From: a virus
Lineage: Duplodnaviria; Caudoviricetes
Reading direction: 5' to 3' (one strand)
DNA length: 24,698 nt
IMG/VR virus record: IMGVR_UViG_3300042453_001085
Location: 1-24,698 of that record
The position numbers and the translations under genes are program-made. Under the pieces are notes generated by a model. The model was not told the DNA's origin. It worked only from the letters and a program-made list of their open reading frames with translations, and ran no database searches. Position 1 is the stretch's first letter; every line of letters begins with the position of its first letter. Shown one piece after another: positions 8,187 to 23,524 of the stretch.

Positions 8187-11100
8187 TTAGTTAACCGTTC
8201 GGATTGATTTCACTGCGCCACCTTCAGCAAATGCAGGCGCTTGCACAAACATCCCTTGATCAGACATGTCGGGGTCAGCGTTGTACGGGGCTTCTACTTC
8301 CCCGCCTTCAGCCATGCCATGATGCTGGCGCAACAGATTATTTAGCTTCTCTTCTAAGTTGACAGCGCCACCTTCTGCCATGCCGTGGTGCTGACGCAAT
8401 AGGTTATTCAGGTGTGCGGTCAGGTCTTGGGGCGCTGCAACGTCTTGCGATACCGAGCCGCCGTCTTTGTATGATTGACCGATCTTTGCTGACTCACGCA
8501 TCTTAGGCGGGATGTCGATGTAGTAAACGGTTTCGTACTTGTCACCCAGAGACTTTTCAAATTCTTTGACAAATTTGTTGTTTGCGCCCTCTTCCCATTG
8601 ATAAAGCGCCGTTCCAGAGCCACCCCTAGCGCTCCCGGGCGGGTATTTGGCAGCAAACCATTCTCTGAAAGCAGGCCAATCATTTTGCTGCTTACCAACG
8701 ATTAATTTTGTCTCCCCCACTTTGCCGCCGAACTGCTTGGCATACTTGTCGAGGAAGTTCTTGTACTGCTTGTCGTACCAGTGCTCCATGCCTTTGCGTT
8801 GGTCTTCACTGTAACGCAGCGTCTGCCGATTACCAGTCGTCAGGTACACGCGATCCATGCCGGTGTCTGCAGCTTCTTTGATCGCACGCTTTAGGCCAAG
8901 CTGGTACCAGTTGTCTTTGAAGGGGGCGTTAGGGACGCTACGTTTTGTTTTAGTTGCTAAATCTCGTTCCGCAATTAGAGCATCTGCTTTAGCCATAATT
9001 TCAGGATGCTTTGCCCAATCATCGGCTGATGGCGCATAACTTACTCCGGGCTTTGAGCGCAATTCTGCCAAAACCGCATCTATGTCTTTATCAATCTGAC
9101 TAAATGGCCTTGCAGATGATGCTTTATACCCCTTCTCCCTACCCTTTTGATGCCAGTCAGACTGCAGCTCATCAATCAGTAGGCCACGCTTACCTTCGGC
9201 GTCAGTGTGATCAGCTACGCGTAGGTGGAACAGGACGTTAGGCTCATCGCCGTGGTGATTGCGGTCATAAAACGCAGGATTTGATTCAGACACCTCGACC
9301 TTTGCAAGAACACTGCCGGGCTTGTTTTTAATCGCCGCTCTTGCCTCAGCCTCTGTTGCAAACATTTGTCCAGATGGATTGGCTGGGTCAAACGCCTCCC
9401 AAGCAAATTCTTTTTTGCTGGTGTCGGGTAAGCCAACGCGAATCTCACGGTAGTTCTCACCGCCCGGCATGTTGTATTCAGGATGTGAGTCGGGGCCATA
9501 CAGCGATGGCTGCTTCGCAGCAATCCTCTCTTTGTTCTGTGCGATCTTCTCTTGCATCGCTTCAATCTTGCGCTCAAACTGAGCAATCATCGGACTGTCA
9601 GGCGCCATCGCGCTGACCCGCGCAATCTCATCACGCATTTGCTGGATGCCGCCTTCGTAAAAACGGTTGCTTTCTTTTAAGCCGTCAAGCGTCTCGCTGT
9701 ACTCCGAGCCCTCTTCGTAAGGACGGCGCACCGTCTCACGCAACGGGATGCGGTTCTGTTCAGCAGCCTCTAAAATCTCGTCTCGCGTCACATCAGGACG
9801 GCTTGCCAGATCACCTAGCCCTAAGTCATTCAGGCGCTCTTGGTTAACGCCCGGGGTCTTCTGCATGTCTGACACAAACGCCGAGCCGGGGCCTTTCTTA
9901 CGCTGCAAGTTCAACGCGGCCTTCTCTGCAGGGTTGTAGAAGCCCACTTTGTTTGCAGGCGCCTTCACCTTGCCAGCCTTGCCCTCGGGGGCTACAGCCA
10001 TCTGGTAAGGCTTCATTGACTTCTCTAGCTGCATCTCCAGCACGTCGCGTGCGGTCGGGGCTAAAGCCTTACCGGTCTTCAATGTGGCAGCACCAGCGAT
10101 AGGCGCAGTGATACCCGCTCCCATCTCAAACAGCGGGCGCTCTTCGTCAGTGGTCAGCCCTGCTTGCTTCAGCAAATCCTGCGCAGCCTCCGTGCCATAC
10201 CGGCCTTCAGGTGCCAGCGAAACCTTCGGGGCATAACCCATCGTCGGCACGCGCTCAGGGCCTGTGTCCATCACGGACGCACGCTCCCGCAGCCCGGGGA
10301 TCTTGGTCTGCAGATAATCTAGCGCCTCGCCACCCATGCCGATGATGTCCATCGGGGCGCCCATTGAAAACGCTACAGGGCCACGCATCAAGACATCCTG
10401 CACGGCTCCCGGCTTTCTCATCGAGCGACGCTCTTTTTCGAACTGCGCCTTCAGCTTAGCCGCGGCATCCGCGAATATCGAAGGCATCTCAAGCGGCTTA
10501 GGCTTAAACATATCGCCCGACACTTCGCCCGGGTTGCCACCGCCCTGCATATGCACAACGCCACCCTCAGCCTTACCAGTTAGCTCTTTGATTCGGCGGC
10601 GGTACTCCCCAATCTCGTCGAGCAACTGCCGATCGATAATCTGCTTACCGCCGAGGAACTGCAAGGTGCCAAACTCTTGAGCAGCCTGCCTTGGATTAGC
10701 GCGGATTTCCGCAACCGTGTCCGGGAAAGTCATCTCATATGGATACAAGATGTCGGTACGCCCGAGAAACTTCCCGGGGATGTCATAGCCGTAAGTCGGG
10801 TGCGCTGATGGCTTTAGCCGCTCAACGCCGGGCTGCATTTGCAACAACGAATAACCAGTCGTCCCCGGCTCGATGTCACGCAACTCAGGCTCGGTGATCG
10901 CATGGCGCACATTCAGTCCGCTTGGCAAGCGGAGCCCTTCCGTTGTTTTGGTAAGCTGCATCAAGGGATTGAAGACTAACTTACGGGCAACAGGGTTATT
11001 CGCCAAATACAGATACGCCGCTTCTGGATTCTCAATGCCGGGGAAGTCAGGCGCTTTAACACCTTGTCTACCATAGCGCATCATACGGTTGAAGGCATCG

Positions 11101-12776
11101 ATGTCGTCTGCGCTCATCTTTGACAAGTCAATGTTTTTCAACAATGCGTCGGCGAAGTGAGTTGCATAGTTCAAACCATCCGGCCCCATTGCTAAAAAAT
11201 TAGCCAGCACCGGAACGTCGCCATACTGTTGAGATGCGTCATTTACCCTGCGCTGGAATGCGGCTGCTTGATCTAAGCCAGATGCCCAGACAGAATCATC
11301 TGGACGATCTAAACCAAAACGCGATCCACCGTATTGACGGGATGGACGACTCAATGGGTTTCCGCCAATCCCGAAGATGTCCATGTCGGAAATTGAAGTA
11401 TCGCCCGGCAGGGTGAGCATCACCTCATTGAGATGCTTCTCCAAATCAATATCTTCCGCCTCGCGGACATCACGGCTGCGCTGCATGTCGTGCTCAAGAT
11501 CTTGCTCGATGTCCCATTGCTTACGGCTTTTGCCAACAGGATTAGTAGACTTACTTGGGTCAAGACGAACAAACTGCCCTTCTATCATTTGAGGGGCTAC
11601 GCGCTCGGCAATCTCGCTGATCTCGGCTTTGGTCTTCGGCTTAGCGCGGGCAGGCTTTGGGGATGGCCCCTTTGACTTACCTTTGGTAGCGACAGGCGCC
11701 GTCTCAGCAGGACGCAGGCGGGCAAGCTCTTCGCCCTCTCGTGCAGCCATCTCAGCTAAATACGCACGTTCTGCAGCGGTCAGTGGGCGAGTAGCCTCAA
11801 CCATCGACTGCAGGTCTTTGCCAGCCTCAACGCCTTGCTCACCCTTCCGTAGCGCCTTTAGCAACTTGCCGCCTTTAGCCATATGCGCTACGCCTCCCTC
11901 GGCTTTAGTGATGTCGGGGTTCTCGATGTCGTAGGTGCCTTGGTTGCCGATGGCGCTCTTCACAGCGTTTGGATTGTAAGACACCACTTCACTCAAGTCC
12001 CCGTCACGGTACTGCATAATGCCGTCGTATCCAGCGGCCTGCGCTCTGCTCTGCACTTGCTTGCCGATGTAACCCCTCTCCTCATAAGCTCGATCAACCA
12101 TACTGCGGGCTTTGTCTTCATCCATACCCAGTTTGGTTAGCGCCTCAACCATTGGATCATTATGCGTACCCTCAAGAATGAGAGGATTGCGTATCTGCGC
12201 ATAAACAGGCAAGACATTTGGCGAATGCCTATCAAGGTTCAAATTGCCATCCCAAGGTGATTCTGCGTACCCAGATGCTCGGCCTGTATTCGGCGTCATA
12301 TAAACGCCAGACCCTAACGAGCCTTCCTTGCTTGGTTTGATGCGTTGGATAGCCTCATTCCCCTTACCGCCCTCGGTAGCCGTCGTGCCATGATAAAGCC
12401 GCATCTGCGCTTTGCTGGGCTCAAGGAATGCCTCCCTACCAGCCTGCAGACGCTGAAGCTCGGCCTCTAGCACCTGCCGTTGCAACTCAGCCCTAGGATT
12501 AAACTGCTTGAGTACCGGCTCCTTACTTGCCAGTAGCCTCTTAGCATCCGCTAACGCAGCCTTGCCAGTCTTTTTAGATGTCTGCGGGACTTTGTACGCA
12601 TCCCGGCGCTTCTGTTCGATCGCGTCTAGCTCTGCGCTGATCCGCGCCTGTAAGGCAGGGTCAATGTCCGGGAGCCGACCCATGATCTCATCAAGCGTCG
12701 CCGCCTTCTTCGCGGTCTTCTCGCCACGCGCCACGTTCAACAGCTTCTTGATGTCTTTAGGACTAGGCATAATCAC
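8187..12776 (-). CDS. Large polyvalent protein with an N-terminal ADP-ribosyltransferase (ART-PolyVal-like) domain; probably packaged and ejected
   Basis: 1529 aa. RLYHGT...GSGVYMT...NVLPVY...GYDGI...EVVSYNPNAVKSAIGNQGTYD matches an H-Y-E-type ART. The C-terminal region (NYRE..., HLRV.D, DELQSDWHQKGR) resembles phage internal proteins. Confidence 0.75.
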   Translation of the reverse strand: MIMPSPKDIKKLLNVARGEKTAKKAATLDEIMGRLPDIDPALQARISAELDAIEQKRRDAYKVPQTSKKTGKAALADAKRLLASKEPVLKQFNPRAELQRQVLEAELQRLQAGREAFLEPSKAQMRLYHGTTATEGGKGNEAIQRIKPSKEGSLGSGVYMTPNTGRASGYAESPWDGNLNLDRHSPNVLPVYAQIRNPLILEGTHNDPMVEALTKLGMDEDKARSMVDRAYEERGYIGKQVQSRAQAAGYDGIMQYRDGDLSEVVSYNPNAVKSAIGNQGTYDIENPDITKAEGGVAHMAKGGKLLKALRKGEQGVEAGKDLQSMVEATRPLTAAERAYLAEMAAREGEELARLRPAETAPVATKGKSKGPSPKPARAKPKTKAEISEIAERVAPQMIEGQFVRLDPSKSTNPVGKSRKQWDIEQDLEHDMQRSRDVREAEDIDLEKHLNEVMLTLPGDTSISDMDIFGIGGNPLSRPSRQYGGSRFGLDRPDDSVWASGLDQAAAFQRRVNDASQQYGDVPVLANFLAMGPDGLNYATHFADALLKNIDLSKMSADDIDAFNRMMRYGRQGVKAPDFPGIENPEAAYLYLANNPVARKLVFNPLMQLTKTTEGLRLPSGLNVRHAITEPELRDIEPGTTGYSLLQMQPGVERLKPSAHPTYGYDIPGKFLGRTDILYPYEMTFPDTVAEIRANPRQAAQEFGTLQFLGGKQIIDRQLLDEIGEYRRRIKELTGKAEGGVVHMQGGGNPGEVSGDMFKPKPLEMPSIFADAAAKLKAQFEKERRSMRKPGAVQDVLMRGPVAFSMGAPMDIIGMGGEALDYLQTKIPGLRERASVMDTGPERVPTMGYAPKVSLAPEGRYGTEAAQDLLKQAGLTTDEERPLFEMGAGITAPIAGAATLKTGKALAPTARDVLEMQLEKSMKPYQMAVAPEGKAGKVKAPANKVGFYNPAEKAALNLQRKKGPGSAFVSDMQKTPGVNQERLNDLGLGDLASRPDVTRDEILEAAEQNRIPLRETVRRPYEEGSEYSETLDGLKESNRFYEGGIQQMRDEIARVSAMAPDSPMIAQFERKIEAMQEKIAQNKERIAAKQPSLYGPDSHPEYNMPGGENYREIRVGLPDTSKKEFAWEAFDPANPSGQMFATEAEARAAIKNKPGSVLAKVEVSESNPAFYDRNHHGDEPNVLFHLRVADHTDAEGKRGLLIDELQSDWHQKGREKGYKASSARPFSQIDKDIDAVLAELRSKPGVSYAPSADDWAKHPEIMAKADALIAERDLATKTKRSVPNAPFKDNWYQLGLKRAIKEAADTGMDRVYLTTGNRQTLRYSEDQRKGMEHWYDKQYKNFLDKYAKQFGGKVGETKLIVGKQQNDWPAFREWFAAKYPPGSARGGSGTALYQWEEGANNKFVKEFEKSLGDKYETVYYIDIPPKMRESAKIGQSYKDGGSVSQDVAAPQDLTAHLNNLLRQHHGMAEGGAVNLEEKLNNLLRQHHGMAEGGEVEAPYNADPDMSDQGMFVQAPAFAEGGAVKSIRTVN
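8301..8411 (-). repeat. Tandem duplication encoding LNNLLRQHHGMAEGG twice (66-nt period)
   Basis: 8301-8345 and 8367-8411 encode identical peptides with many synonymous differences. Confidence 0.85.
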
Positions 12777-14743: not shown

Positions 14744-14904
14744 CGTCTCCAATTAGGGTAGGGCTCTTTGTTGTATGACTTGTACGGGCTCGGGCTTCTG
14801 CGCTCAAGGCATCCCTTGCAGATCCAGCGGAAGACTTTACCCCGCTGCTGGCGCTCACCACCCTCAGACGGCTTGTCCGCCTGACAGGATGTACAGAACT
14901 TCAT
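14740..14904 (-). CDS. Small CxxC...CxxC zinc-finger protein (54 aa)
   Basis: Not in the ORF track. MKFCTSCQADKPSEGGERQQRGKVFRWICKGCLERRSPSPYKSYNKEPYPNWRR; ATGA overlap with the terS stop. Confidence 0.75.
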   Translation of the reverse strand: MKFCTSCQADKPSEGGERQQRGKVFRWICKGCLERRSPSPYKSYNKEPYPNWRR

Positions 14905-15413
14905 TTGGCTTGCTTAGTCAGCTCGATGTTCTTCAGGACGGCGTCGAACACGCTGGTGTCTACCTTCAGCTCTAACGGGCTATCAGCATCGCCTGCAACG
15001 ATCTGGCGGTCGCCGTACTTCTTAGGCTTCAGCTTACTCGCTACCCACTTACGGGCGTCTATGCGGTTCTTCTGCCATGTCACCCACCCACTATCGGTGC
15101 GGCTTACGCCCTTGTCATCAACGATCTCTGCAGGGGGCTCATCAGCAATAGCTTGTATCTCATCAGCGAGTGTATCGGCCTGCTCTTCTCTGGCCTTCGC
15201 GTAATTGTCTGAGAATTGCTTATTCTGCAACAGCCACAGATAGACTGTACTGTGTACAGGCATTCTGTCTTCCATGCAGATTTGTCTTAGGGATTCACCG
15301 CAGGAGATTCTTGTGCATATCTCTGCGGCGATTTGGGGATCGTATTCAGTCTTACGACCGGCACGCTTTTTGGGCGGCTTTGACTCTTGATTGATTGTGG
15401 CGTCTTCAGACAT
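14901..15413 (-). CDS. terS: Terminase small subunit (Sf6-like)
   Basis: HTH region EICTRISCGESLRQIC...HSTVYLWL and RIDARKWVASKLKPKKYGD; upstream of terL. Confidence 0.9.
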   Translation of the reverse strand: MSEDATINQESKPPKKRAGRKTEYDPQIAAEICTRISCGESLRQICMEDRMPVHSTVYLWLLQNKQFSDNYAKAREEQADTLADEIQAIADEPPAEIVDDKGVSRTDSGWVTWQKNRIDARKWVASKLKPKKYGDRQIVAGDADSPLELKVDTSVFDAVLKNIELTKQAK

Positions 15414-15641: not shown

Positions 15642-15909
15642 AACCCCTGATGGCTTTGCGGGTCTTCTTGACTGAGCCGCCACGCTTCTTCTCGTAGTCA
15701 GTGTCAGGCTTCATACCCAAACCCTCTTTGTATGAACGCCCATAGTTTCGGGCGCCTTTACCAAGGTTCTCAACGAGCTCAGCCGCCTTTTCTTTGGCGG
15801 CGGCTACGTAGTCCTTATCAGGGTCAAGACCTAAACCGGCCTTGTACGTCTTACGGTAGTCGTCAGCGAACTCTTGCAAGTCCTCAACTATTCCCTTGCT
15901 CTTCGGCAT
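15634..15909 (-). CDS. Small basic protein with an internal repeat and a C-terminal KKRGG motif
   Basis: ORF 15634..15966; start moved to ATG 15909 after GAGGAG (MPKSKG). Confidence 0.7.
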   Translation of the reverse strand: MPKSKGIVEDLQEFADDYRKTYKAGLGLDPDKDYVAAAKEKAAELVENLGKGARNYGRSYKEGLGMKPDTDYEKKRGGSVKKTRKAIRGYD

Positions 15910-16072
15910 CTTGTTTCTCCTCGGCAATTGGCAACTGCGGCATCGCCTGCATTCGAATGTTGTCAATGATAGGCGCAGATTGGTTAAAAGGCAAAGCCCC
16001 CAGCAATGTCAGCAGGTGGTTTACCTCTTCCAAACTATAGCTCAGGGTAATGCGAATGTCTTTGTTTTCCAT
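15884..16072 (-). CDS. Small hypothetical protein
   Basis: ORF 15884..16117; start moved to ATG 16072 after AAGGA (MENKDIRITLSYSLEEVN...LGALPF). Confidence 0.7.
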   Translation of the reverse strand: MENKDIRITLSYSLEEVNHLLTLLGALPFNQSAPIIDNIRMQAMPQLPIAEEKQDAEEQGNS

Positions 16073-16100
16073 AGCTGTTTCCTTTCTTGTAATTGAGATT

Positions 16101-16161
16101 GTTGGTACTCGCTGCACTGCCTTTGCATTTCAGCTAACTGGTCAGCATCCGCTTTCCCAAC
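16101..16161 (-). ncRNA. Candidate structured RNA A with a loop-E/sarcin-ricin-type motif
   Basis: GTTGG/CCAAC closing stem flanking GAA...AGTA, with inner GCG/TGC and CTG/CAG pairs; intergenic. Confidence 0.5.
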
Positions 16162-16237
16162 TGGTATGGAGACCGACTCTGCTACGCAGGTTCCAGTCTA
16201 CGTGGGCGGGGGTAGTGCCCAGCCGGCCTCCATGCCA
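16162..16237 (-). ncRNA. Candidate structured RNA B (76 nt, three-way junction, 3' ACCA; C4/CI-like shape)
   Basis: Closing stem TGGCATGGAGGCCGGCT/AGTCGGTCTCCATACCA pairs at 16 of 17 positions with 2 G-U. Inner hairpins GGGC-ACTACCCCC-GCCC and CTGC-GTA-GCAG. Confidence 0.65.
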
Positions 16238-16238
16238 C

Positions 16239-16308
16239 TTGGTGCTGTACGCAGTCGGCTCAGCCGCCGTCCTTGACGTCTCATTGTTATGGCACTGCGC
16301 TTGCCCAA
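16239..16308 (-). ncRNA. Candidate structured RNA C (cloverleaf-like, 3' ACCA)
   Basis: TTGG/CCAA and GCGCAGT/ACTGCGT stems enclose CAT-AACA-ATG, CGTC-AAG-GACG and CGGC-TGA-GCCG. Confidence 0.5.
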
Positions 16309-16324
16309 TGATCCGTCAGTCTAC

Positions 16325-16516
16325 CTACTTTTCAGCATTCACGAGGCCGATCGCATATTCCGCGATCTCCCGGATACTCGCCGTACAAGTCCCGTCCTCA
16401 AGGATGTCCTCCATCGCGCTCATCAGGATCATCCGCTTGCAGTGCTCTTCATACGCCGCATCCACTACTTTATCAAATTGCTTTTCCATTCTATCTAGTA
16501 CCTGTAAGTCATCCAT
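16325..16516 (-). CDS. Small acidic hypothetical protein
   Basis: 63-aa ORF collinear with its neighbours; weak RBS. Confidence 0.55.
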   Translation of the reverse strand: MDDLQVLDRMEKQFDKVVDAAYEEHCKRMILMSAMEDILEDGTCTASIREIAEYAIGLVNAEK

Positions 16517-16530
16517 GGGATTGAAGCCTT

Positions 16531-16553
16531 AAAAAAGCCGGGGTTCCCCGGCT
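16531..16553 (-). terminator. Rho-independent terminator
   Basis: AGCCGGGGAACCCCGGC followed by TTTTTT, just after the stop at 16560. Confidence 0.85.
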
Positions 16554-23433: not shown

Positions 23434-23468
23434 AGCAACCCTCATCAAAGGTTTCATCACGAATAGGT

Positions 23469-23524
23469 GGGAGTCAGCAGGCCGGTGATGAATCGGCTTT
23501 TCAGGAGCTACCCTAGCTGTTCCC
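23469..23524 (-). ncRNA. C4/CI-like antisense or cis-regulatory RNA upstream of the initiator gene
   Basis: GGGA-ACAGC/GCTG-AC-TCCC closing stem with hairpins AGG-GTAGCT-CCT and GCCG-ATTCATCAC-CGGC; the loops are complementary to downstream sites. Confidence 0.7.

Follow-up and report, generated by a model that had tools for sequence, protein, structure and literature searches.

Three conserved structured RNAs, one a double pseudoknot, form an array before the packaging genes of a phage

Introduction

RNase III processing stalks include the stems of rRNA precursors and intercistronic sites of phage T7 such as R1.1. Phage tRNA clusters can carry stable RNAs that are not tRNAs, and RNA C and RNA D of T4 are examples. 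HDV-like ribozymes have the nested helix order P1-P2-P3-P1.1. E. coli RNase III prefers G-C/C-G at the two pairs between its cuts and A-U/U-A at positions D and D' (PMC6212723). A weak consensus for the enzyme includes CWUNNN^NAWG (PMC4357697), and a single proximal-plus-distal set can be enough (PMC1540722). Pairing of RNase P with RCC (PMC11143913) is the rule used here in the comparison with the P1 C4 and P4 CI RNAs; the c4-2 family is taken from PMC5737381. Ribozymes linked to tRNAs are known, and the theta ribozymes begin no more than 5 nt from the 3' end of a tRNA (PMC10879173).

A sequence-only reading of a phage fragment had proposed that one gap is tiled by three tRNA-mimic RNAs, each opening with TGG and closing with ACCA, which host tRNA-processing enzymes cut from a single transcript. 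We find that this gap encodes three RNAs, termed C, B, and A in the order of transcription, that are real, conserved, and uncatalogued in Rfam.

Results

Genomic setting of the array

The window, meaning the whole 24,698-nt stretch that was analyzed, is a 24.7-kb phage fragment that contains genes for a cro-like repressor, a replication protein, terminase subunits, and a capsid protein. The capsid protein is 90% identical to that of a freshwater-spring phage and 76% identical to those of Caulobacter phages. Inspection of the matching place in the freshwater-spring phage (MW202545.1) by eye and by pattern showed no array. A 1529-aa ORF (window 8187-12776, minus strand) between terminase and portal has only a weak C-terminal PHROG match.

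The array lies in a 252-nt minus-strand gap flanked upstream by a 63-aa ORF and downstream by a 62-aa ORF, beyond which come the packaging genes (Table 1). The earlier description of the gap as the largest non-coding one in the window agrees with the ORF list, by which it is ranked informally. All three minus frames contain stops in 28/28 homologous loci (29 B contexts minus L282, a chance match), and a 160-aa plus-strand ORF (16050-16532) is not kept in one frame across loci; the region is non-coding, as first read. A terminator-like hairpin lies upstream of the gap and no terminator was found between the array and the downstream genes, so the gap transcript probably continues into the packaging genes. 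An invariant TARACT hexamer is kept with different upstream genes; it is a -10-like promoter box or else belongs to the RNA. No -35 was seen by eye for this hexamer, and a second family of C, described below, has GGTCTG at its position.

Table 1. Features of the array and its neighbors in window coordinates
Feature	Position	Strand	Remarks
Terminator-like hairpin (intrinsic type)	16536..16553	-	upstream of 63-aa ORF
63-aa ORF	16325..16516	-	upstream of array; no PHROG family; kept in some relatives only
TARACT hexamer	16318..16323	-	invariant; just 5' of C
Element C, double pseudoknot	16244..16317	-	covariation, 22 sequences
C hairpin H1, P1	16317-16306 with 16286-16275	-	
C hairpin H1, P2	16305-16302 with 16294-16291	-	
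C knot 1	loop 16300-16295 with 16254-16249	-	
C P3 hairpin	16269-16256	-	
C knot 2	loop 16264-16261 with 16247-16244	-	
Element B, stalk of ~22 pairs	16157..16242	-	24 sequences; core 16237-16162
B basal extension	16242-16238 with 16161-16157	-	
B cargo, two hairpins	16184..16220	-	C-rich loop 16220-16204; GGAAC loop 16203-16184
Element A, rod	16101..16161	-	5-bp closing stem, GAAA/GAGUA internal loop, invariant bulged core, variable apex
A variable apex	16142-16120	-	
62-aa ORF	15884..16072	-	directly after A; first of run toward terminase small subunit
Terminase small subunit	14901-15413		downstream of array via the 62-aa ORF run

Element C is a double pseudoknot

In element C, the 7-nt loop of a long hairpin pairs with a strand downstream of it, and the loop of a second hairpin pairs with the next strand, which follows a single A. 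In 22 distinct relatives, 10 of the 31 pairs change on both sides and 90.3% of the cells are paired, compared to 28-47% in slid controls of the alignment. The relatives are close kin, 7 of them have lost the outer stem, and this set on its own provides moderate evidence for the fold. The first C pattern scan gave 25 matches, 15 true and 10 chance. The C model found no match in 86 A loci. The three self-contained folds drawn in the sequence-only reading correspond to three real, conserved RNAs, but its boundaries and fold for C were wrong. A cloverleaf-like MFE fold of 16308-16239 has only 2 two-sided pairs, a count reached by 492/500 shuffles, and loses to the pseudoknot.

A distant element was found with the C model at E 0.0086. 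The pattern made from this element returned 31 stretches; 25 rows minus three (L447 and L453, which have no pairing, and L460, a truncated duplicate) gave 22 distinct rows. In this second family, two-sided changes affect 5 of the 6 knot 1 pairs and all 4 of the knot 2 pairs, with most knot positions lying outside the search pattern, and every one of the 523 cells is paired. The second-family model did not find the C of the window (best first-family score 8.9 bits, E 2.1). The two families share one fold. Their common origin is probable and not certain because it is based on a match in one direction and a common topology, and the reverse search fails. Invariant unpaired bases are present in C, and few unpaired bases are common to both families. 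A descriptor of the topology gave 30 matches in 317 kb around known modules, all from the two families, and 1 false match in ~400 kb of background.

Second-family copies often precede a jumbo-phage tRNA by 3-7 nt or stand close upstream of a stalk, and at L467, L468, and L474 they lie 35-45 nt after the preceding tRNA or tmRNA. L474 is the cultured Rhodobacter phage RcRudolph, in which a copy with both knots is found just after a two-piece tmRNA. The tmRNA (within L474:2200-2860) overlaps the annotated CDS RCRUDOLPH_61, and the double pseudoknot in the same interval is followed by ~300 nt more of unannotated, apparently structured sequence. A small GNRA-tetraloop hairpin is often located 5' of the second-family double pseudoknot (L352, L381, L442, L448, L474) and may dock on it.

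C was also compared with known ribozymes. Membership in the theta/HDV-like class was rejected since the covarying topology differs from the nested P1-P2-P3-P1.1 order. Distance was the other ground, as relatives of C lie at 35-45 nt rather than within the 5 nt described for theta ribozymes (PMC10879173). No family core or model match was found for hammerhead, twister, pistol, or hatchet.

Element B is related to a family of stalks

Element B is a stalk that closes two hairpins, which we call its cargo. In 24 sequences, 7 of the 32 pairs show two-sided changes and 95.4% of the cells are paired; the basal pair switches between G-C and A-U (14 and 9 of 24). The B pattern scan of viral contigs returned 105 stretches that were mostly chance matches. 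The B model matched related stalks, with 32 at E<=1 in 78 loci (best 3.6e-5), and it detected one related stalk in 86 A loci. The related stalk family is widespread (~230 viral stretches by pattern), lies among tRNA and tmRNA genes, and has varied cargo that is sometimes tRNA-like (L450, L458). Related stalks alternate with modules whose closing stem is GTTGG/CCAAC, and one of these modules is a tRNA body. In L371, one array slot is occupied by a tRNA body with the same closing stem. This body (L371:1574-1677) has a 42-nt insert in its anticodon arm, and one of the tRNA-like stalk cargoes (L450:1392-1464, minus strand, and L458) was called with a four-base anticodon by ARAGORN.

Element A is a rod with a variable apex

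The A pattern returned at least 119 stretches, and ~520 viral stretches are estimated. Seven GTDB contigs also carry copies, and these include Cupriavidus gilardii, Fluviibacter, a betaproteobacterium, and four bins from other groups. Outside the search pattern, covariation is seen in the closing and upper stems; the core is fixed by the pattern and is uninformative on covariation. The GAAA/GAGUA internal loop is presumably bulged-G-like. The apex ranges from about 10 to about 100 nt, and the apex of the window recurs identically in 6 upstream contexts. The pattern missed the A copy in G011, probably because its apex exceeds the allowed gap. Cargo common to A and stalks was found in 19/128 compared to 11 in the control, a weak signal. 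An anti-Shine-Dalgarno-like loop is present in a subfamily of apices (6/128; L005, L028, L051, L219, L264, L272). Frames with the same closing stem and internal loop and another upper core (L014, L019, L129, L162, L190, L328) suggest a wider scaffold superfamily.

A follows many different genes and precedes unrelated ones, and stand-alone copies lie mostly after a stop codon. Among the matches listed, 81/118 stand-alone copies have RCC directly after the stem, with 0-7 at later offsets, and 15/118 have ACCA. RCC is absent from the window's own copy of A, where the trailer is AATC, and from 12 of the 16 copies that follow B (4/16 have it, and ACCA follows 0/16); these 16 are one clade, and the contrast in trailers is not independent. 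Modules after a related stalk mostly end in AACC or AACT (67/124). A -10-like box is found 5-8 nt before 18/118 of the listed stand-alone copies, where nearby stop codons confound the count.

The CCA ends are paired and not conserved

The letters are as first read. TGG is near each start, GCACCA, ATACCA, and GTACCA are at the three ends, and the units are tiled with 1 base between C and B and 0 between B and A. The three-unit pattern, chosen after being seen, occurs in 0/5000 shuffles. It occurs in 1/28 homologous loci, which is the window itself, and CCA follows C in 9/28. The CCA of B pairs with B's own TGG, and the ACCA of A straddles the closing stem of A. The overlap of A's first five bases with the base of B explains the TGG and CCA that were noticed. 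These data do not support tRNA-mimic ends.

ARAGORN found no tRNA and Rfam gave nothing in the gap at E<=10, in agreement with the earlier statement that D- and T-loops are lacking. A cloverleaf with D and T loops and a conserved unpaired 3' CCA are both absent. Rfam searches of the window, of 9 + 20 + 20 loci, and of two annotated stretches returned no family match to C, B, A, or any related stalk, and the C4, c4-2, tRNA, and ribozyme models suggested for comparison had no match in the gap; weak sub-threshold overlaps were seen near modules in the scanned loci. When the gap and an A copy were compared by blastn with 50,697 phage records, only chance-level matches resulted. B alone folds better than its shuffles (z -3.41, 0/200), as does the whole 208-nt region (z -3.6, 1/300), and C alone (z -1.59, 15/200) and A alone (z -1.22, 26/200) do not stand out. 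Covariation, which had been named as a check, is found in all three elements as two-sided changes in the pseudoknot fold of C, in B, and in the stems of A.

The B/A junction and the fit to RNase III

The first five bases of A have two mutually exclusive partners, the base of B and the 3' end of A itself. Both pairings are kept in 28/28 loci, with 4-5 of 5 and 5 of 5 pairs in the two alternatives. The B-first fold dominates at equilibrium, with pair probabilities of 0.83-0.99 versus 0.01. In 130 related stalks the basal pairs outside the search pattern are also kept, and the overlap is therefore a feature of the stalk family.

One register of B satisfies all four RNase III pair preferences in 24/24 sequences by the E. 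coli rules. None of 15 other registers does so in any row. The same register satisfies all four preferences in 125/130 related stalks, where three of the four rule positions lie inside the search pattern. At D', a pair not covered by the pattern, 123/130 stalks have A-U and 2/130 have U-A. The four positions are among the 6 never-varying pairs of 22 in B, shuffled stalks have a 4-of-4 register by chance in 17%, and a second register scores 4 of 4 in 98/130 related stalks. The apical side of B matches CWUNNN^NAWG of the weak consensus (PMC4357697), and the basal half, judged by eye, fits the consensus poorly with ~8 pairs and a G-G mismatch. The apical helix has 13 pairs and one mismatch, compared to the at least 11 pairs expected beside a cut. 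The sole RNA-library contig (run X1, share 0.06) is 156 nt long at depth 2.2, runs uncut through the C|B and B|A joins, and is either uncut RNA or DNA; the flanks that it leaves uncovered are uninformative.

Modules are exchanged between loci

There are 15 module orders in the 28 loci, some of which end at contig ends. Between C and the next gene are 3 to 7 modules, sometimes followed by another element. B-A occurs without C before a different gene in L162 and L190. Further uncatalogued modules, E, H, and G, extend the array in relatives (L004, L005, L007, L010, L011, L049, and others). Module G ends in a terminator-like run, and H can nest within the apex of A (L147, L270).

Other small elements in the window

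A weak int-alpA match (window 23455-23523, minus strand; 31.5 bits, below the 35.8 threshold) follows a -10-like box in the interval that separates the cro-like from the replication genes. Its leader and ACC trailer are the same as those of stand-alone A, and it is kept in G001, G002, G004, and G005. Two genes of the window (18014 and 18907, minus strand) have a common leader consisting of a small hairpin, the tag ACAGGAGCGAA, and then the start codon; this leader is also present in G001, G003, and G004. The first loop of the int-alpA-like element is complementary over 7 nt to this early-gene tag.

Discussion

We put slightly better than even confidence in a model in which the array is a cassette punctuated by RNase III, and the B stalk would release C, the B cargo, and A from one transcript. 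B would fold first and hide the 5' strand of A. Staggered RNase III cuts are predicted at 16235|16234 and 16163|16162. Cutting would leave a weak basal duplex of ~5 pairs, and melting of this duplex would allow A to close. The 3' tail of C, tied in two knots, may resist exonucleases. The predicted products of C, B, and A are, in turn, a double-pseudoknot RNA, a two-hairpin cargo, and a rod RNA. Stand-alone A copies have no stalk and would instead depend on RNase P or a promoter. The weakest step is the function of the products. We tentatively suggest, at somewhat less than even confidence, that they serve in trans as ligands or decoys of host proteins, a role favored by the conserved internal loops with a free apex and by the shuffling of modules between unrelated contexts.

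The proposal that host enzymes cut a polycistronic array holds in part. The elements are independent structured RNAs that are probably host-processed, and evidence for an array comes from the shuffling of modules, the relatives of C in tRNA clusters, the tRNA body in the L371 slot, and the RCC trailer of stand-alone A. The part that assigns the cutting to RNase P, at the 5' G of tRNA-mimic units that end in free CCA, is unlikely. RNase P pairs with RCC (PMC11143913), RCC directly follows the stem in 81/118 of the stand-alone A copies listed, L371 has a tRNA body with the same closing stem, and RNase P would form the 3' end of C where second-family copies lie 3-7 nt before tRNAs. However, the CCAs of the array are paired and poorly conserved, ACCA is infrequent after stand-alone A and absent after B-linked A, RCC is present in a minority of the B-linked copies and missing in the window's own copy, neither Rfam nor ARAGORN detects a tRNA shape, and A is predicted to be open while B is intact. 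It is improbable to a similar degree that C represents a new class of self-cleaving ribozyme and forms the ends of the array or of neighboring tRNAs, an idea compatible with the stalk model. The compact double pseudoknot with two covarying knots (5/6 and 4/4 pairs), the invariant unpaired bases, the location of C-fold copies in tRNA clusters and beside tmRNA, and the precedent of tRNA-linked ribozymes (PMC10879173) would fit such an activity. The small number of unpaired bases common to the two families, the helix order unlike that of HDV-like ribozymes, the 35-45 nt that separate C from a preceding tRNA or tmRNA, and the lack of a ribozyme family match or hammerhead core argue against it.

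Two regulatory readings explain less of the data. The array as a cis-acting leader of the late operon, serving as antiterminator, 5' stabilizer, or translational control, is quite improbable. Its position downstream of a terminator-like hairpin and upstream of packaging genes, with no intervening terminator, the switch-like alternative pairing of B and A, and the single uncut RNA-library contig are consistent with a leader. A leader does not fit with the variable number and order of modules before the next gene, the many different genes that A follows and the unrelated ones that it precedes, the B-A pairs that lack C and precede a different gene, or the second-family C in tRNA clusters. It is very unlikely that B and A are antisense RNAs of the C4/CI type, with loops that pair with phage ribosome-binding sites. 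B has a three-way fold with a C-rich loop, CCTCC occurs in 6/128 A apices versus 0 with GGAGG, and G004 has a perfect loop match at a start codon. Against this, A apices do not pair better with the start regions of their own loci (mean 7.17 nt) than with those of other loci (7.30 nt; n=58), the fetched flanks of 9 genomes or fragments have no common target for either B loop, and C4, c4-2, and int-alpA have no match in the gap. The cis target expected for the antisense action suggested at first was not found in the fetched sequence.

In the literature searched we found no description of the C, B, or A motifs. Supplementary files 3-6 of PMC10690425 contain no motif match, and the three RNAs may be among the unnamed candidates of that work. 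The double-pseudoknot fold is the part most likely to be new in kind. A broader idea, which we regard as rather doubtful, is that proteobacterial phages run a plug-and-play RNA display in which RNase III stalks and rod scaffolds carry swappable cargo, headed by an undescribed double pseudoknot that would be a new class of ribozyme or of protein decoy. Three covarying families, one with an unusual double pseudoknot and two with viral copies in the hundreds, are absent from Rfam 15 and point to an extensive layer of phage RNA that lacks annotation. The stalk model yields exact predicted cut sites, and the RcRudolph copy provides the double-pseudoknot fold in a phage that is cultured with its host. 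Should the products prove to be decoys or a new ribozyme, they would bear on counter-defense and on the processing of phage tRNA clusters. The natural carrier scaffolds could also serve RNA expression.

The array has features of four described systems. Like P1 C4, P4 CI, c4-2, and int-alpA, its elements are small stem-closed phage RNAs, and stand-alone A has the RCC trailer; in contrast, the array has no free RCCA, no cis target found, and no match to these families in the gap. HDV-like theta ribozymes (PMC10879173) are also double-pseudoknot RNAs that adjoin phage tRNAs, but in C one 3' tail reads two hairpin loops in turn, C lies upstream and not at the 3' terminus of the tRNA, and it occurs in freshwater-type rather than gut phages. 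The array resembles the tRNA clusters of the T4 type in being a polycistronic non-coding block, and relatives of the C topology and of the stalks lie among tRNA and tmRNA genes, whereas the array in the window has no tRNA; the T4 RNAs were compared through Rfam. B resembles the RNase III stalks in being a long imperfect helix that closes a cargo, and it fits the pair preferences of PMC6212723 and half of the consensus of PMC4357697. Its cleavage is a prediction, and B differs from those stalks in that the cargo is a small swappable RNA and the stalk base sequesters the 5' strand of the next module.
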